A model generated the notes under the pieces. That model did no database searches. It saw only the letters and a list, made by a program, of their open reading frames with translations, and had not been told where the DNA came from. A stretch of DNA of 63,920 nucleotides, filler included, from Atractiella rhizophila (taxonomy: Eukaryota): assembly GCA_021432655.1 (NCBI GenBank). It is 5 parts of 5 records of this genome, joined end to end, with 100 filler letters (N's around TTAATTAATTAA, not from the genome) between each part and the next. Parts side by side here need not be neighbours in the genome. Positions count along the whole stretch, not along the records: positions 25,953 to 38,778 come from MU271999.1; 4 more parts are not named here. One strand, written 5' to 3'. Shown piece by piece: positions 2,626 to 55,005 of this stretch. The position numbers were made by a program, and so were the translations under genes. Each line of letters opens with the position of its first letter. Positions within the stretch are counted from its first letter, which is position 1.

Positions 2626-2939
2626 GAGAATAGACCCTTATGCTTTGGTTCTATGGTACGTTACCTTTTTGCCCTGTGGATAAAGAGACTTAATCTCATT
2701 CAAGTGATGCTCCCAGCTTCGCATCGAATACAGGAGTGTCGCACATCCTTGGTTCAAACTTACATCTTTTCTCAGCTTCCGAGTCCTAGAAAATACAACA
2801 ACTAGCTGATATCAACGTCCTTCTCGCATAATCCTCAGAAAATCGAAGCACAAACCGAAACGATGAACACAGAACACTCTTTGGGGACAATGGGAAGTTA
2901 AGAAACCTCGCGACGGAGCAACCGACACTAGAGGTGGCA

Positions 2940-4650
2940 TCATTTTCCCTCTGGCTTAAAAGGAGGAGGCGTTGTTCGAATGTTCTCCAATTCAACGTTC
3001 ACACGAAGTCCCTTCTCAACCGCATCTTCTTGCTGGATTGATACTTCGGTCACCTGCTCGTCAATTTATCCGATGAGTATAGGCTCCTTGCCATTACAGG
3101 ACAAGAAATACCAGAATTTTGTCTCGAAAACGGGATGCCCTCCCAGCCGTATCTCGTGAACTTTGGTTGAAGTTATCGCGACGGTTGCTAGAATTGACAT
3201 TGGGGAGCGAAGATGGTAATGAGGGATAAAGGGCGGCTTCGTACAAAACCAAAGCTGCGACGACATAAACCTTGTCCGTTGGTTGAGGAAGGCTCCGTGA
3301 GAAAGAGTGAAATTAATACTTTGGCTATTATGTAACCCATTGCTGCCCATAAGCCTGTGTGCTGCGTTCCCCTTTGGTATCAGCAAGTCTGAATGGGACA
3401 TAGAAGAAACAAACAGGGGTGATAATGAGAAAAATGAGCTCGAGGATCTAGTCTTCTCTGTTACTCAATTATGATCCATGTATTCTGGAATACCCACTTG
3501 AGTGATTGTTGGAATAAGTCCAGTCTCCAACGTCAGCCTTCTGTGTGGTCAACTGGCATGAGTTGGATGTCTCGAAGGCTCAACAAGACGTACATAAACT
3601 GAGATGAAACGGATCTATCAGCTTCCTCCACGATGGAAAGGATGCTCACCTTAGCAGCGACAAAGTTAGTCTTGCTATAAACCGTCCTATCCCGGTGACG
3701 ATGGAGATGGTAGACCATGCAGAAACAAAGCAGGGCATCAGCTGTCGATGCACCTGCTTGCGATCATAAGTGCGCAACTTTTATTGATGAGAGGCGAGTT
3801 TACAGCCTAATGCAATGCCGCCTGGGACTAGAGTACCGGGAAATAAATCCACGATTGGGCGGGTGAGATGGATTCCGTAGAACACGAAACCGATTATCTA
3901 TCAACAAGATTGCAAGTGAGCGTGAGAACAAGAAAATAAGAAAGCGCACGCAGGCGAGACTCAGAGCCCCAGCTAGCCAGAGACATCTGTCAAGATCCGT
4001 TTAACATAGGAAGAGGAAAAATGGAAGGGGAGGTACCCAAAAGTGATCGGCTTCACATTCTTTTGTAATGAGCCCAACTTTGACAACCCTCTTCCAGTGT
4101 ACAGTTAGTTATGGTCTCCATCGTTGTAACCATGTAGACACACCGAGTGATGCGCACTATCCGCCATATGTAGATTGCTTGCACATAAGCCGTGAGGATG
4201 CCTTGGAAAACAGCGACGTAGACTAGATTTGCGTCATGCTTCACCCAAATGGATATTTACGAAGGACAGACTAGTTGCAGGCACTGGAGGTGAAAGAAAG
4301 AGGAGGGGTCCAACAAGAGCTATATCTTGCATATATGTGATAAAAGAGGCGAATTTCGTGATGCTGCACGTAAGGGGCGGTGTCAGAAGCTGAAGAAAGG
4401 TGAAGGGGAAGGCTCACGTGTCTCCAAGATTAATCCAGAAAAGCACTGTCAAAATCCACCAGGTTTTCGAATACACTGACTGCCTCTCGTGTAAGAGCTT
4501 GAAGACGCTAAAGAACTGTTGGAGTGTTATTCCGAAAAGTAGGAATCCAATGCTCGCGCCAATTATGATTGGATAGATATGAACCTGATAGTCGTGGCGC
4601 GTCCACTGGACGAATGACGCTTGAGTTTCAGGCTGAGAGGCGTTGCTCAT
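2940..4650 (-). CDS. Multi-exon integral membrane protein, DUF6534-like (basidiomycete multi-TM family)
   Basis: Exon translations PIIIGASIGFLLFGITLQQF, TAYVQAIYIWRIVRIT, VYHLHRHRDRTVYSKTNF and LTLETGLIPTITQ fit the family pattern. Last exon reads ..TTPPPFKPEGK* ending at 2940. Internal exon borders approximate. Confidence 0.7.
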
Positions 4651-31483: not shown

Positions 31484-32408
31484 ATGTTGCGTCTATCTCG
31501 ATCCTCTCCCATCCTCTTACGGGGGGTCCAACTCCAAGTGCGGCACTCGACTCTTCCCAGCGCTACGGCCTCGCCTTCCTACGACCACAACCCGCTCACG
31601 CTCGACGCAGCCATCAAGCAAGGAGAGGGCGGCAAGGTCCGTCCTGCTCCTCGTACTGGCGGAGTGGCGTCGGAGGGAGAGGGTGCGGGAGAGGTGGTGT
31701 CGGATGAAGATACGAGGGTCAGAGCGGCGGATGAGGCTTTGGCTGCTGGTGTCGTCAATGGAGTCCCTCGTGCGTTGTTGTCTTCTCTTCCTCTCCTTTC
31801 CGTGACATTGATGATTTGTGGTGTGTAGCGGAAATGTTCCACCGACCCGTTCGCATTTATAGGCCGACCAAGAATGCGATGCAGAGCGCGAAGGGAGACG
31901 GACAGCATTGGAGGTTGGATTGGGATCGGTTGAGCGGGAGCGGGAGTTGGGAGAACCCATTGATGGGATGGAGTAGTTCGTGCGTTTTCCCTCCTTCCCC
32001 TTCTTCCGCTACTCCTACTCCATTATCTCCCTGGTTCTTTTGGCTATATATAATGGCTTGACGCAATTCTTTTGGGTTTAGAGCGGACTACATGCAAGGT
32101 CTGTAACCTACTGCTACTCCCCCTTCCTCTTCTTCAGACGTCATGGAAGGCTGACAGTCTGGCAGGCACGCGGCTGAAATTTGCCACGAAGGACGCAGCC
32201 ATCGCTTTCTGCGAGAGGCAGGGATGGGATTATTATGTCCAGCAGACCTTTGTGAAAGAGTTGGGACCTAAAAGTTACTCCGAGTACGTCTCTTTTCACC
32301 TTCTCCCTCCTGTTTCCCCACGGGATGCAGATTGCTTATTGATTTTGTGGAATGGACAGTAACTTCAAACATGTCCCTGGAGAGCTGAGGAAGATACCTA
32401 CCAAGTAG
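31484..32408 (+). CDS. NDUFS4: Mitochondrial complex I subunit NDUFS4 (NUYM), 5 exons: 31484-31769, 31829-31979, 32082-32098, 32166-32283, 32360-32408
   Basis: Spliced product has [54 protein letters not shown] and PKSYSDNF, plus an N-terminal presequence-like MLRLSRSS. Confidence 0.95.
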
Positions 32409-32723
32409 CATGTACATATACTTATTTCATTGAAGGTTTAGAGGAGGAGAATGGAGTCTTTCAAATGGTCACCAACTATGCTGCCTGTGCACCATTGAGA
32501 GGATACTCGCCTATGGATATCAAAACAAAATGTCACACCCTTAAGATGTAGAAGCAATGTCCTCATAAATTGACTCAAACCAACAGCAGAAGATTCTCTT
32601 CGCTGGTTCGCATTTTGTACCTTTCCTGCGGAGTTGTGCTCTCACAACATTTAAATCGACGGTCGCCAACAACTCCACACTTCACATCAATACATCCCTC
32701 CTTCTAAAAAGGAGGAGAAGTAC

Positions 32724-34028
32724 ATGCCAGACTTTTCCGCGTCCTCCCTCCTGCTCGCCTTCCTCGTCTCCTTCCTGCTCACAGGCGCCATGGGATTCTT
32801 CACTTCAGATCGAAAACGTTTCGACCCATCCGGCAAACACTGTTACGTCGTTGGCGCTTCTCAAGGGTTGGGACTCGGACTGGCGAAGAAGTTGGCTGGT
32901 ATGGGAGCGAGCGTTACTATCGTGTCGAGGAATAGGGCGAAGATTGATGACGCGTTAGGAGAGGTTGAGGTGCGTTTCCTTCCTTACACGTTTCCTTCAC
33001 CTGTTTCCTTCAACTTTTTTAATGCGAGCTGATGAGAGGAATGGAGTAGAAATGTAGAGTGAACGACTCCCAGAAGTTCACCGCGCTCGCTTATGACGTT
33101 TCCGACCCTCAAGAAGCAGTCAAGGCGTTCGATGATGTGGAGGGGGTCTTTGGAAGTACGCCGGACTATGTCTTCTGCACGGCGGGGGTCAGTGTCCCGA
33201 AGTTCTTTGCGGATTCGAGCAAGGAGGAGTTGGAGATGCATTTCAAGACAAACACCTTCACCGCTCTATGGACCGCCCATGTATGCCCTATGTCCTTTCT
33301 CTCTCCGTCCTTGTTCGTTCCTGTTTAGGTGTCTATGGCACACCATTTGTTCGTCATGTTGATTGATTGGTGGGAGGATAGGAAGCGATTAGACGGTGGG
33401 TAGCGCAGAAGAAAGAGGGCAAGATCATGTTCACGGCCTCCGTCGTCGCTTTGAATCCCTTCGCCGGTTACGCAGCTTATGCGCCTACGAAATACGCGAT
33501 TCGAGGTACGTCTCTTGATTCAGGGACGAAAGCGACTGAAAGGAATGGAAAGGTCTCTGCGACACCCTCCGCCACGAGCTCAAGATCTACTCTCCTCCAA
33601 TAACCGCCCACTGCTATTTCGCAGGCACCATCCTCGGTCCTTCCTTCGAAGAAGAGAAGAAAGTCCGACCACCCCTCGTCGCCAAAGTCGAAGGTCCAGA
33701 CAGCGGGCTGACGGCTGATCAGTGTGCAGAGATGGTAGTGAGAGGTATGGAGAAAGGACACACGTACATCACGGACTCGGCCATCCCAGGCGAGTTGTTT
33801 AGGAACAGTCAGGGCGGGTTGACCCCTCGGAACAACTTTGTGCTTGATACGCTTTGGGGCATCGCAGCTTGGGTTCGTCCTTTCCTGTTCTTCTTCCTCG
33901 GTCCATTTTGTGACGACATATAGATCGCTTTCCCCATTTGGAGATACTTCATTGACCAGGATGCCATCGCGGAAGGAAAGAAGATGCGTGCTGCTGCTGC
34001 TTCTGGATCCAGCTCTGTCGCCAAATGA
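32724..34028 (+). CDS. TSC10: 3-ketodihydrosphingosine reductase (SDR family), multi-exon
   Basis: N-terminal TM segment, GASQGLGLGLA Rossmann motif, PDYVFCTAG, catalytic YAPTKYAIRG, DTLRHEL, FAGTILGPSFEEEKKVRP. Confidence 0.9.
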
Positions 34029-34592
34029 TGCTTCATTCTCACTTCGCTGTTCTTTGCTTTGGTTCGCCTTCAGAGAAAAGTATACTATTTATGGTTATCG
34101 TTTAATTGAGACGTCAGCTCGTCTTCAGCAAACAATTTATTTAGGTGCTTAGGTGATATGGGTCCTTTGCCTGATTCTGAATCTTTAGATCTTGATACTC
34201 CTCCTCGGATAAGTAAGCGAGAAAAACTACCGTAAGACACAGGTTCTGCAACCATTCATGGCTTCAGGTCCAAAAAGTTGTTGTAAAAAAACCGAGTGAT
34301 TCCAGCCACAACACTCTTCCTCGCCGTTCAGAACGTGATAGTTCGGACAATTCTTGCCGCGTTCGAGATCTTGATATCACTGTGATAGCCATCAAGACGT
34401 AGGTCTACAGAAGCAGAACTGAAGCGGCTGATCTCTTAGTTTCTCTAAGCTGACAGTGTCGGTCCGTGCACGTCTACCTCTGATCAGCAGCGTCTTTTGT
34501 TGTATTGTTGTGCTGAGGCGGGTCAGTTAAATATTCTATTAACATTGTCAACATCAAAGGGAGCAATCTGCGGCTTGCTCAACGTCGTGGCC

Positions 34593-34617
34593 NNNNNNNN
34601 NNNNNNNNNNNNNNNNN
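34593..34617. other. 25-N gap bordering a mis-oriented patch
   Basis: 25 Ns. Confidence 0.95.
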
Positions 34618-35798
34618 TATGAACGCGTTACATTGGTTTTATTTCCGCCTCATTGAGAACGGACAGAAAGTGTAGGCTAAACACCGGTTTGTTTCAGTTT
34701 TACAACCTCCGTATCCGCATTCTGCAGGGATCGCTATACGCCCGCGAGAGCTATAACTCGTTTTCGACACGCGTCAGGCCTCTTCCTAGTACTGCGATTT
34801 AAGACAACGAACGACCTGTCCTCTGACGGTTAGGTTTCGTTCACTCTTTCGAACTTCGACGTTACAAGACTGACGACGCACAGCGACCGCCGGCTGTCAC
34901 GCTATTAGCAGTTGGCCCTTCAGTAGACGCCCTCTGTTTCTATAACCCCGTTGTCAGGGGTCCTTAAGCCTTACACCGCTTTTAACCCGACGCTATGGCT
35001 TCGTTATGCGTTCCTCTAAACATTGCGTCGGCAATTTTCGAAGTCCGAAGTCAAACTCCAGCAGTATTCAACACTTGGGTGCCAGGAAGTAAACGAGCTA
35101 GTCGAGTCGCAGTTTCTATAAGCAACGCGGAAGTGCTAGTCGTTCAAGATTTTCTACGACAGGTTGACGCGCTCGAGCGACTTCGCAGTTATCAACTAAT
35201 GACCAGCACCTTCCTCGCTCTCACTACACTACGCTAGCAAATGAAACGAGACTGCTTCAACGTTGAAAGGGAAACGCTGCTTAGAAAACAACGCTAAAAG
35301 CAAAAAAACCAACAGCGTACTACAGGAACTGATTTAGCCGACTTGAACTTATTGATAGAACTTCGAACAGCCAAACGGTGGGATCGTGTTTTATTGTCTG
35401 AGTCTGAAGTATAAAAACCGGCAATAACCCGGTCAAATGCGTGGGAAAGGCGGAGAAGGTCTCTTGACCAGCTATCCTCACGAGTGTAGACTAGTTTGTA
35501 AGTCTTCAGTATATAAACTCGACTTTGTGCCAAGCAACAGTAGATCCGTCGCATATGTACGGTGGCTACTCAGGAGAGCTTTCGTTACTTTTAGTACGAA
35601 GACTGTGGCAACTGTAAACCTTCCGTAACAGAGACTTTACTATGACGCGGTTGGTGGCGAATTAGCCTGAGAGAAGGCATACCTACAACACCACCTACAC
35701 TTGATGGGGAAGAACGTCAGAAAAATAAGGATCCCTTATTATACGGAGTCCGGTGCTGCAACTCGTTCGGCGTCTAACGAGGGAAACTACAACTGTTA
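34618..35798. other. Segment written in reverse order without complementation (probable assembly artefact)
   Basis: 35798->35750 read backwards is identical to 34544-34592 (49/49 nt). Backwards reading gives a long ORF and normal splice sites. Confidence 0.95.
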
Positions 35799-37097
35799 GT
35801 CATTCTTAGGAACCCCTTTCCTTTTCTAAGGCTATTTGCTGTTGACAGATCGACAACCACTTGAATTTTCAAACTGGAGCTTTGCTATTGTAAGTTTGTC
35901 GATGCTCTGGCAGTCTAGCACATAATCAGTTTGTGTCAGAACAAACCAGCATTACCGCAAGTATTACCAACACTCGACATTCGAATATGAAATACTCCTC
36001 CATCCTCGCTTCATGCTCGACGTGCCTATCGAGGGAGATGGATCAGCAGCATCGGAACGAAAACTCATTGCGTGTACGGAGTGCATACACAGAAACTTGT
36101 GTTTGTTGGGTCAGTCCCCCTGTTTCATTTCTCTGAACAAAAAGGAGGATTCATGGCCGTGGGCAGGAAGTATTCTCCGTGAGGGTGACGAACCATCGAC
36201 GGAGCTTCTTCTACTCGAGATTTCTGACTCCTTAGACTTTCTCAAACGCTGGCGCGAAACATATCTGGCATTTGCACCCAAATTTGTTGCCCAAACCGAT
36301 ACACAACCTTTGCTTTCCGCTCAACAGGTGAACCAGAAAATAGCACTGCTACGTATATGATCCTCACGCTTTACTTTAAGGCGGCCGCACGTTGGTTGAA
36401 ACGTCTTGAAGAAGCGGCACAACTCTTCCCTGGAAACAGAATACTGAACGAGCTTCAGAAGCAAGTGCAGCCTCGTCGCGACGCTATTATCAGTGGTGTT
36501 TTGACGTACGCTTCCGCCATCACCGTCATCAAATGGGTCTCGAAGAATAACACTCTGCTTGCTCCAAACCACGAACAAACGGCACTGAACGCCGTATGTT
36601 CGCCAATTCCATTCAGGAGTCTGACCGAAATTATGGACAGATATATGAACTACCTGGTGGATTCAGAAATGTCGCACATTATATGGGAAGGCATCCTGAA
36701 ATGGCGCCTTACGTCGCAATGTAAGTCTATACTAAACTGACTCCCTACAACTGCTCAAGCTAGTTGCAGGGTAGTTCGACAGATGAAATTTCTCAGCTGG
36801 AGGTGGTTCTCATGTGTGGAAGCTCTTGAAGCTTTCGAGGATGAGCTCAGTCGAATAGAGCTAGTAAGCTGCTCTTCCTTCAAAGATAGGACTAAAAGCC
36901 ACCACCAGGCAAAAGCAGCGGTTAACGGAAGCGAATACGGCGCACCTTCGCCCAAGTTGGAAAACTTTGATGAAACCCTTCGTGCATTCAGTGAAGGAGG
37001 TGGTCAATTTGCTGCGAATGAAGAGACCGATAAAGAGGCCACATTGAGTGATTTCCTCCTCGAGCTTTTCGCCATTTACAATCCTCATACAATGTAA
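34618..37097 (+). CDS. Zn(II)2Cys6 fungal transcription-factor-like gene; 5' half lies in the reversed patch, 3' exons in 35849-37097
   Basis: Reading backwards from 35627 gives MPSKCQRCQKHDFHCFREDSSVACIRCLDDNEPC (Cx2Cx6Cx8Cx2Cx6C) and then a PKKRK-containing ORF. The restored junction makes donor GTATGT, spliced to exons 35849-35889 and 35940 onward (ORFs 36013, 36357, 36783). Confidence 0.82.
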
Positions 37098-39072: not shown

Positions 39073-40383
39073 CTAAAAATCCTCCTCAAGATCTTTCGAT
39101 TGGGTAACACTCGTTTTCGGCGACTGATCGGCGAATTGTCCAAATTGTCGTTCTTGGTGCATCATTTTCGAATCAAAATATTCTCCCTGGGCCCGAAGAT
39201 ATTGCTCCTTGTTCATAATCGTTCTACACTCCCTTTCCCGGTGTCCTATCTTTTGGCATCGCCTGCAACGGGGAGGTCTAGACTTTGTCGCGTCGACTTC
39301 CATGTCATCGGGGTCTTTGGCCCTATGAGCGTGTGGGGCGGCGTTGGGTGACGGGTCGGCGACCGGTGACAAGGCGGCGCTCGGTCGATACGATACGGAC
39401 GTTCTGTTCTCTCTGTGCTTTGAGGATTTTGAGTTGTCCCTTTTTGCAGAAAACGTATTTTGTGGTCCGTCTTTCGCCGATGGGATGTTTCGAAAGAAGG
39501 TTGAATGCGCAGATTCTTCCGCATCAATTCGCCGAGATTTTTCTTTCCAGTCTTCCAGCGATTTTGGGAACTCCCCTTGGGTTACTTTGAGATGTAGGGT
39601 AGGATTGAGTCCTCGTTTGAAGAAAAAGGTAAGGGCTTCATCATCAAAGTCAGCTTGATTTGCCAATTCTTCGAACTTGATGATGTAGGTTTCTAGGTTC
39701 CCCTTTTGCTGGAGGGAAGATATTTTTGTCTGTGCAATGAGCTTATGGTCTGTCTTACAGAAACACGCTTTGAACTCCGACAAAAATTGTTCCCACGCAA
39801 TTTGTTCCTCATTTTCGACAAGTCGGCGCAAAATCCCAGCGGCGAATTTTTCCGCATCTCCTTCTTTCATGTAAGAAAGGGTAAATAGGATTTTCGATTT
39901 TTCAGTCGGGAATTGACCTGGAACGGTAGAGGTGTAGACGTAAATTTCACGTAAAAATGTCGGAGCTGTGTTAGGAGCTCCTTTGAAGATTGAAGGTGGA
40001 GCGAGCTTGATACCTGCATACGGTGCTACTTGGGCAGTCTGGGATATAGACGGAGGAGAATAAGTTTGAGGTATTGGGTCTGTTCGCGATAAGAAAGGAG
40101 AGGTGGTTCCACTGTCTCTAGGAGGGGGCAGTCTGGAGTCCAATAATTGCAAAATTCGATCATTTGTGTTTTGGACGTCGGACCTCAGTTGCGCAATTTC
40201 GTTCGCATTCTGGGAGGTTTGCGCATTTTGTTGGTTGAAGCTTGATATGAGGTCTTGTTCGAGTTTTTTGAATTGCTTTTCAGTTGTGAGGTGTAGAGTT
40301 TGAAACATCCTTTCTAAGTGCTGGATGCGTTCTTCGCTCGTCGGCGGTTCGCGCGTTTCCATATCTCCCCAAATCTCCGACAT
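39073..40383 (-). CDS. gag: Retrotransposon Gag, 436 aa
   Basis: PSIFKG, FPTEKSKILFTLSYMKEGDA, LQQKGNLETYIIKFEELA, FKRGLN, DDMEVDA and CCHC knuckle CRRCQKIGHREREC. Confidence 0.92.
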   Translation of the reverse strand: MSEIWGDMETREPPTSEERIQHLERMFQTLHLTTEKQFKKLEQDLISSFNQQNAQTSQNANEIAQLRSDVQNTNDRILQLLDSRLPPPRDSGTTSPFLSRTDPIPQTYSPPSISQTAQVAPYAGIKLAPPSIFKGAPNTAPTFLREIYVYTSTVPGQFPTEKSKILFTLSYMKEGDAEKFAAGILRRLVENEEQIAWEQFLSEFKACFCKTDHKLIAQTKISSLQQKGNLETYIIKFEELANQADFDDEALTFFFKRGLNPTLHLKVTQGEFPKSLEDWKEKSRRIDAEESAHSTFFRNIPSAKDGPQNTFSAKRDNSKSSKHRENRTSVSYRPSAALSPVADPSPNAAPHAHRAKDPDDMEVDATKSRPPRCRRCQKIGHRERECRTIMNKEQYLRAQGEYFDSKMMHQERQFGQFADQSPKTSVTQSKDLEEDF

Positions 40384-40426
40384 TTTTTACGTTCGGTTTC
40401 AAAATTTTAAGGAGAGAGTATTCTTC

Positions 40427-40916
40427 TGTTAGGGCTAACACTATGTGCGGTCGCCGATAGGCGATGCGTCTGTAGTGGAGGTAAACCTAAGAGAATAGTA
40501 TGGCATAAGAAGACTAACCTGTAGTGGAGGTAAACCTAAGAGAATACTCTGAGGTCACCACCACTACATCTCGATGTATATATACATATGTAAAAGCACT
40601 GCCATAAACTGTACCATAAGTTTCTTGAAACATGTAAGATAGCTAGATCAGGAAAGCAATAAAAGGAAAGCTCGGAAATAAGACATACTGAGTAGTACAA
40701 GCGAGAAAGGACAATAAAGCAATAATTGAGACGGTGCAGACCGGCGAAATGTATAAGGTTTGCTGAGCGGCGATTCGTGTGAGACAGGGGAAGGCGGCGA
40801 TCAGCGAGAACGTGAGCAAAGCGGCGATGGGCAGGCGCGTGGTCCCATGGCATGGTAAAGTGGGTCACGTGACTTTAGATGGTGCATTTCGGTAATGCGT
40901 AGGGGCAAGCCTGACA
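40427..40916 (-). repeat. Putative 5' LTR of element A (490 bp)
   Basis: Minus strand begins TGTCAGG and ends CCTAACA (6/7 inverted match). Contains a TATA-like run near 40577-40585 and a 28-bp direct repeat (40470-40497, 40519-40546). Partner LTR not in window. Confidence 0.75.
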
Positions 40917-42564: not shown

Positions 42565-43370
42565 TGAAGTTGCTTATCCCGGACTAGAGAGAGAGTTCAA
42601 AGTTGGGAATAAACATTTGGTGGGCAAACACCAAAGCAGTTTAGTGAAAAAGAACTAGAGCAGCAACTAGTGCTTTTGCAATGGAAAATGCGCTTTTCAA
42701 CACTATAATTGACCCAAAGTACACTGAGCAAGCACCTGGGGACGAGAGAAACAATTATGAAGTCAAACGAAAGCGTAGAATGCTCACAGCACAAGTGAGG
42801 GATGTTATCTCCCCCTAAACTTTCCCCTTTTATGGCTTTCCTCCCCCTCCAGCACTCCACCAAGCTCCACTTCTTTTCCTTCCTCATCCTCTGATCTCCT
42901 ATATCCTTTCCTAAGTCCTATGTTGCCCTATTTCCTTTTATCTTGCCCACGTTTTCTATCTTGTCCAATCGCCATTGTCTTCTTATTTAAGGTTAAGATG
43001 GAGTTTTCTATTGACCCTTGTTCTATCTTGAATTGGCTGTTGCCTACATTTCCTTGTTCTGATTGAATTAAAACATGGTTGCGGAGTTATGTGTTGTGGG
43101 GAAGTAAGTAATTTGGTTGATGATGCAGTGAAATAGGTCATTTGTCTGGCACGTGCCCGTCTTTGGCGTATGCTCTTCATGTGACGATATGTACAGACAG
43201 GATGGGGTACATCATGTCCCTCCTGTTTGCCGAGTTGCCCCCGACGAGTTTAAACTGTAACCAGACCCTAACCCTATGTTGGGCAGGTCGTTCACCTCCC
43301 TGACCTAAAGTCAACATATAAACCACCATCCCTTCGTCAACTCCCCCAACTTCAACCACCATCTTCCTCA
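42565..43370 (-). repeat. 3' LTR of element B (806 bp)
   Basis: Minus strand TGAGG..CTTCA, directly preceded by polypurine tract GAAAAGGGGGGAGGG. First ~163 bp on plus match 51483-51646. Confidence 0.85.
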
Positions 43371-51482: not shown

Positions 51483-51646
51483 TGAAGTCGCTTATCCCGG
51501 ACTAGAGGGAGAGTTCGAAGTTGAGAATAAACGTTTGATGGGCAAACACCAAAGCAGTTTAGTGAAAAAGAACTAGAGCAGCAACTAGTGGTTTTGCAAT
51601 GGAAAAATGCGCTTTTCAACACTATAATTGACCCAAAGTACACTGA
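51483..51646 (-). repeat. 5' LTR of element B (U5 end only, truncated by gap)
   Basis: Matches 42565-42727 with 7 substitutions and 1 indel by manual alignment. Confidence 0.9.
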
Positions 51647-54553: not shown

Positions 54554-55005
54554 NNNNNNNNNNNNNNNNNNNNNNNNNNNNNNNNNNNNNNNNNNNNNNN
54601 NNNNNNNNNNNNNNNNNNNNNNNNNNNNNNNNNNNNNNNNNNNNNNNNNNNNNNNNNNNNNNNNNNNNNNNNNNNNNNNNNNNNNNNNNNNNNNNNNNNN
54701 NNNNNNNNNNNNNNNNNNNNNNNNNNNNNNNNNNNNNNNNNNNNNNNNNNNNNNNNNNNNNNNNNNNNNNNNNNNNNNNNNNNNNNNNNNNNNNNNNNNN
54801 NNNNNNNNNNNNNNNNNNNNNNNNNNNNNNNNNNNNNNNNNNNNNNNNNNNNNNNNNNNNNNNNNNNNNNNNNNNNNNNNNNNNNNNNNNNNNNNNNNNN
54901 NNNNNNNNNNNNNNNNNNNNNNNNNNNNNNNNNNNNNNNNNNNNNNNNNNNNNNNNNNNNNNNNNNNNNNNNNNNNNNNNNNNNNNNNNNNNNNNNNNNN
55001 NNNNN
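54554..55005. other. Sized scaffold gap (452 N)
   Basis: N run. Confidence 0.98.

Follow-up and report, generated by a model that had tools for sequence, protein, structure and literature searches.

A block of backwards text beside a gap in the Atractiella rhizophila assembly hides the 5' half of a gene

We analyzed a 63,920-nt stretch of DNA from Atractiella rhizophila, referred to as the window, in which contigs from a 51.5-Mb assembly of 1998 contigs are joined with N linkers. Runs of 44 N, a linker and 44 N in the window are joins between contigs and not gaps. The locus described here lies on contig C820 and comprises a 25-N gap, a 1181-nt block and the correctly written 3' exons of a gene (Table 1). 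Upstream, positions 32054-33923 hold ordinary genes, recognized by their Pfam matches as an exon of NDUS4 (PF04800, E 1e-11) and a member of the short-chain dehydrogenases (PF00106, E 1e-6). Splicing is seen there at 33503 and 33871 in X3, one of three sets of read-derived contigs introduced below. Downstream, a 256-codon open frame on the plus strand extends from 38010 to the contig end at 38778 and matches no Pfam family at E<=1. The next contig carries a 437-codon retrotransposon gag / Ty3 capsid open reading frame on the minus strand (39073-40386). Direct repeats are present at 40470 and 40519 (28 nt) and at 42572-42727 and 51490-51646.

Table 1. Features of the gap region and of the gene that spans it, in window coordinates
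Feature	Position	Strand	Description and evidence
Left mirror arm	34544..34592	+	Final 49 nt of the left-hand piece of contig; overlap of fill and left flank; exact mirror
25-N placeholder	34593..34617	.	True distance -49 (overfilled gap); C108 spacing
Reversed, non-complemented gap fill	34618..35798	.	Base 34618 truly adjoins 35799; composition, C108 alignment, loose ends
Hidden 5' half of gene	34619..35627	.	P0001 residues 1-300, readable backwards only; tblastn E 6e-156
Phantom first exon	35704..35796	+	Residues 1-31 of P0003, spelled by mirror text
Right mirror arm	35750..35798	.	Start of the true fill (49 nt), backwards; exact mirror
Rest of intron, donor in the block beside the gap	35799..35848	+	X3 upstream exon joins 35849
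3' exons, correctly written	35849..37097	+	Residues ~299-632 of the same gene; GT..AG joints in X3

The preliminary description of this DNA had claimed that 34544-34592 recurs exactly backwards from 35798 to 35750. Comparing the whole window with its own reversed string confirmed this 49-nt mirror, which is the sole mirror match longer than 22 nt in the 63,920 nt and has a chance expectation of about 4e-20. The second-longest mirror is a 22-nt low-complexity run. A self-search of the whole window for complement or reverse-complement matches longer than 16 nt returned none, and no backwards block adjoins the window's other internal gap, which is 452 N long (54554-55005). The reversed segment had been placed at 34544..35798. 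Its body, the 1181 nt from 34618 to 35798, stands as reversed text, whereas the proposed start at 34544 is that of the left mirror arm, which lies outside the block.

The base composition of the block is consistent with text written backwards. TA and AT odds are 0.96 and 0.54 within the block, compared with 0.61 and 0.93 in the rest of the window. ATG and CAT together occur 15 times, and GTA and TAC 37 times; string reversal swaps these two sets. Under Markov models (orders 1-4) that were trained on the remaining window sequence, the block gains 35-46 bits when read backwards. When the window was cut into 1181-nt tiles, 53 of 54 scored negative and the sole positive tile overlaps the block, though the other tiles belonged to the training set and are biased towards negative scores. 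As an out-of-sample control, we scored 53 gap-free stretches on the 10-kb scale. All except one reached 27 bits or less, and a gap lies just past the end of the remaining one. The swap in TA and AT odds and the Markov scores agree with the earlier remark that the composition is odd as deposited and normal when read backwards.

We compared the block to a second, gap-free copy of the locus on contig C108. Both flanks recur there at 98% and 100% identity, 1130 nt apart and without N, compared with the 1132 nt expected from 1181-49. The left arm is present in a single copy in C108. The block read backwards aligns to the C108 copy with 96.96% identity over 1185 columns (24 mismatches and 12 gap letters). 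The best local score against C108 was 2181 for the backwards string, compared with 26 for the block as deposited, 25 for its reverse complement and 24 for its complement. Readings of the block as a reverse complement or a complement were rejected on these scores and on the window self-search. In reversed order, the block is seamless at both junctions with its flanks. The true sequence of the block is the backwards string, and the claimed reversal without complementation holds, since only the string-reversed block aligns to C108. Mismatches between C108 and the flanks number 21 in 994 columns on the left and 2 in 1003 columns on the right. Because 3% of columns differ from the backwards block, we regard C108 as a second allele or a duplicate, and not as the same molecule.

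A more distant relative of the hidden gene lies elsewhere on C108. The paralog at C108:70376-72744 (L004/L005) is 78-81% identical to the hidden gene, and the backwards block aligns to L005 at 80.9% over 1032 columns. None of the deposited, reverse-complemented and complemented strings aligns to this paralog. Part of the paralog is duplicated in tandem (1162 nt, 97.5% identity), and the annotation divides it into P0004 (357 aa, six cysteines kept) and P0002 (121 aa).

Support from sequencing was assessed with Logan contigs of public runs, which are derived from reads and are not raw reads. X1 and X2 represent one sample, possibly the source of the assembly, and X3 represents another. X3 was treated as RNA-like solely on the basis of its seven GT..AG joints. 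Loose letters, at which these contigs depart from the deposited text, begin exactly at 34592 in X1, X2 and X3 and at 35799 in X1 and X2. Behind 34592, all 30 letters of the loose ends agree with C108, and 25 of 30 agree with the backwards block without gaps. Before 35799, in X1 and X2, the agreement is 29 of 30 with C108 and 28 of 30 with the backwards block. The read-derived contigs therefore exit both flanks in the order of the backwards block. No X1, X2 or X3 contig placed here spans the entire block, and a further run, X6, gave 0 records. Depth is 0 for all three sets in nine bins covering 34610-35698. Contigs indicate presence only, and X3 is also absent over 34126-34488, so zero depth across the block is not counted as evidence. 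On the left flank, X1 and X2 hold two variants, and two loose-end contigs agree at 0.95; some of the substitutions relative to C108 are probably allelic.

Splicing supports the same order of letters. The preliminary description proposed that joining the reversed block to 35799 rebuilds a GTATGT splice donor, and the rebuilt sequence is indeed GTATGT, where C108 has GTACGT. Use of this donor is supported because the loose end before 35849 in X3 is the upstream exon, which abuts 35849 without the intervening intron. The introns of the 3' part follow 35889, 36108, 36593, 36720 and 36863, each marked by a GT..AG joint in X3, and the stop lies at 37097. Outside the block, one G is missing at 36290 that is present in X1, X2 and X3, and its absence splits a 271-codon open frame of C108 into frames of 144 and 170 codons. 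This missing G is likely a consensus error or a broken allele.

The C108 copy encodes P0001, a 632-aa protein listed by its source as a hypothetical protein of Atractiella rhizophila. In tblastn searches, residues 1-300 match the block only when it is read backwards (best E 6e-156), and residues 299-632 match the window as deposited. P0001 gave no tblastn hit to the block as deposited. Fungal Zn(II)2Cys6 (Gal4-type) transcription factors carry the pattern C-x2-C-x6-C-x5-12-C-x2-C-x6-8-C near their N-terminus. Residues 5-34 of P0001, at approximately 35526-35627, read C-x2-C-x6-C-x8-C-x2-C-x6-C and have this spacing. P0001 resembles these factors in its N-terminal six-cysteine spacing and its length of 632 aa, but differs in having no Pfam hit at E<=10, and thus neither PF00172 nor PF04082. 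P0003, P0004 and the C108 exons matched nothing in Pfam except a sub-threshold DUF5651. The ESM Atlas clusters nearest to P0001 carry PF00172 (features 0.96; 10 of 10 best hits in the same family). Structural likeness was only moderate, with TM values of 0.46-0.58 for a model whose pLDDT is 0.54, and none of these values reached the bar for naming. The hidden gene is best called Zn2Cys6-like, with a putative function as a transcription factor. Among the best 8000 candidates scored, the only sequence relatives of P0001 were P0002, P0003 and P0004, all listed by their source under Atractiella rhizophila.

The public model of the block's own locus is P0003, a 363-aa protein present in NCBI and nr. 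Its first 31 residues are translated from the phantom exon, and residues 32-50 follow a frame other than that of the P0001 exon. The fault has left P0003 truncated and given it a phantom N-terminus. Because mirror text spells its residues 1-31, the fault is present in the annotated public assembly.

We examined whether backwards text recurs in this assembly using 80 stretches from 79 contigs, which were picked by number and weighted to small contigs; three of the stretches were extended. This non-random sample covers 778 kb and contains 39 N runs, 8 of them of exactly 25 N. Backwards blocks scoring at least 39 bits were found on 9 of the 79 contigs. Two weaker Markov blocks were dropped before counting: L043, at 22 bits, and L012, at 27 bits and lacking both a gap and the TA/AT swap. 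Seven of the nine blocks were confirmed by sequence. Those in L018, L030, L084, L054 and L081 match second copies at 96-99.9% identity, with L030 and L054 at 99.5-99.9%. The L027 block was confirmed by a gap-rich mirror overlap of 2 kb at 88.8%, and L107, the seventh, has a 24-nt mirror overlap beside a 25-N gap (2665-4046, C240). The remaining two blocks, on C801 and C450, rest on composition and on longer open reading frames when read backwards (248 compared with 134 codons and 267 compared with 154 codons). A search for a second copy of the C801 block found none, and the block on C450 is not clearly adjacent to its gap. A tenth block, found through a search and outside the count for the 79 contigs, has a 119-nt mirror overlap beside a 948-N gap (L109 1-2095, C308). 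On C1030, backwards text lies on both sides of one 25-N gap (L030 443-6375) and makes up about 5.9 kb of the 7.4-kb contig; its left side matches C36 at 99.9%, and its right side was recognized by composition only.

The preliminary description anticipated that the fault may recur at 25-N gaps. It does recur, and 5 of the 8 sampled 25-N gaps carry a backwards block, but the fault is not tied to this length, as blocks also adjoin gaps of 50, 100, 948 and 1748 N. The notion that 25-N gaps always carry the fault was rejected, since those in L025, L045 and L065/L108 have no block, although very short reversed pieces could escape detection. The 25-N gap in L025 (3774-3798, C826) lies between 2.1-kb direct duplicates of a sequence that is single on C86. 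On C826 the overfill was written in the correct orientation, and the tandem duplication that it creates is false. L045 (154-345, C890) includes an element of about 185 nt with at least 35 copies across the assembly at 92-99% identity, probably a short mobile or repeat element.

In total, 19,849 of 731,436 sampled bases are backwards, a lower bound from a non-random sample. The same limits apply to the values for large contigs (942 of 191,746 bases, 0.5%), middle contigs (3,856 of 193,534, 2.0%) and small contigs (15,051 of 346,156, 4.3%). Fills at the affected gaps are 0.8-3.6 kb long. At the four junctions that were traced (L018, L030, L084 and L054), the gap-side base truly joins the anchoring contig, as it does at 34618. 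Within its own slot, the extension has been turned round.

The reversed 1.18-kb block is almost certainly an assembly artefact and not a real feature. A software error in gap filling had been suspected from the outset, and the orientation of C108, the loose ends and the recurrence all support the artefact reading. The 49-nt mirror is the overlap of the fill with the left flank, and its junctions are exact. This overlap with the far flank and the short 25-N run that remains are signs of an overfilled gap. Almost certainly, a gap-closing step lengthened the right-hand piece by 1181 nt towards the left, so that it ran 49 nt past the point where the left piece ends. The two were left unmerged with a 25-N placeholder between them, and at output the extension was set in the correct slot with its letters reversed but not complemented. 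A reverse step without a complement step would yield such text. Alternatively, an extra complement, without a reverse, applied to an already reverse-complemented fill would yield the same result. The faulty branch may fire only on extensions that need a strand flip, a speculative condition that would explain gaps without a reversed block. A correctly written overfill, such as that on C826, gives a direct repeat, whereas this block gives a mirror.

An overfilled gap is marked by a run of exactly 25 N, and insertions that lengthen homopolymers fit long-read consensus error. All five extra-letter indels between the block and C108 lengthen homopolymer runs, and two of the five break a frame that is open in C108; they may include allelic differences as well as fill errors. 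The responsible step is probably a PBJelly-type long-read gap filler with a faulty reverse-complement branch. In the available text on PBJelly, flanks are extended, gaps can be overfilled, the gap threshold is 25 N and the mean similarity of fills is 91.7% (PMC3504050). The default of 25 appears again in the accessible part of a second source (PMC6240028), and overfilling and imperfect fills, with an accuracy of 88.6-95.2% on simulated reads, in that of a third (PMC8848313). As described in these portions, a PBJelly overfill resembles the block in its one-sided extension, its unmerged overlap with the far flank, its 25 N and a fill apparently less accurate than the flanks. Reversal without complementation is absent from the available text of PMC3504050, PMC8848313 and PMC6240028; in these portions, 'revers' occurs 0 times in PMC8848313, and 'reverse' in PMC3504050 concerns Sanger sequencing. 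Our search of article listings, drawn mostly from outside the subscription journals, found no published description of such a bug.

Another step could instead have written the block, such as gap closing with short reads, a script that merges scaffolds or the conversion of a file format. We treat this as a variant of the artefact explanation and consider it possible but rather unlikely. The L030 and L054 blocks, at 99.5-99.9% identity to their second copies, exceed the PBJelly accuracy of 88.6-95.2% given in the accessible text of PMC8848313, which favors such a step. A PBJelly-type filler is better matched by fills of 0.8-3.6 kb, by the homopolymer-lengthening insertions, by the gap-rich 2-kb overlap of L027 at 89% and by the 25-N placeholders at overfilled gaps.

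The remaining explanations place the reversal outside the assembly software, and we consider each of them all but excluded. As the window joins several contigs with N linkers, the reversal might have arisen in our own file handling and be absent from the public assembly. The public P0003 contradicts this, as the mirror text at 35704-35796 encodes its first 31 residues, and the reversal covers just part of one contig. Even less probable is a real mirror rearrangement, in which the cell would have copied 1.18 kb in the reverse polarity without complementing it. Nothing but the order of the letters in the record speaks for it. Against it, the loose ends at both block edges follow the ordinary order, and the blocks adjoin N gaps and join their anchoring contigs exactly. 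Templated synthesis is antiparallel, and a copy that is turned round is a reverse complement; a real mirror would need copying in parallel sense. The block formally shares its mirror symmetry with biological mirror repeats and H-DNA. H-DNA mirror repeats are short, homopurine-homopyrimidine and closely spaced, whereas here the arm is of mixed bases, the arms are separated by a 1157-nt spacer and one arm is missing from the second copy, so the block is not an H-DNA mirror repeat. The least probable of these explanations is that an ordinary inversion or inverted duplication was misread as a mirror. A true inversion would have reverse-complement identity to the standard arrangement, which is absent, as no reverse-complement match in the window exceeds 16 nt and the reverse complement scores 25 against C108, compared with 2181 for the backwards string.

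The block represents no new biology, and the value of recognizing it is one of database hygiene only. BLAST, HMMs and gene callers do not see backwards blocks, and genes therefore look truncated or absent, as with the zinc-cluster N-terminus lost here. Nonsense peptides, such as residues 1-31 of P0003, enter public databases. Findings beside gaps in the Atractiella rhizophila assembly need screening for backwards text. We see an even chance that an undocumented, systematic gap-closing bug mirror-writes about 1% of this assembly, and probably parts of others made with the same software version, hiding genes and seeding phantom peptides into NCBI and nr. If this is true, a scan for the TA/AT swap beside gaps would detect and undo the fault, and such a detector would be useful for the Atractiella rhizophila assembly and perhaps for related assemblies.
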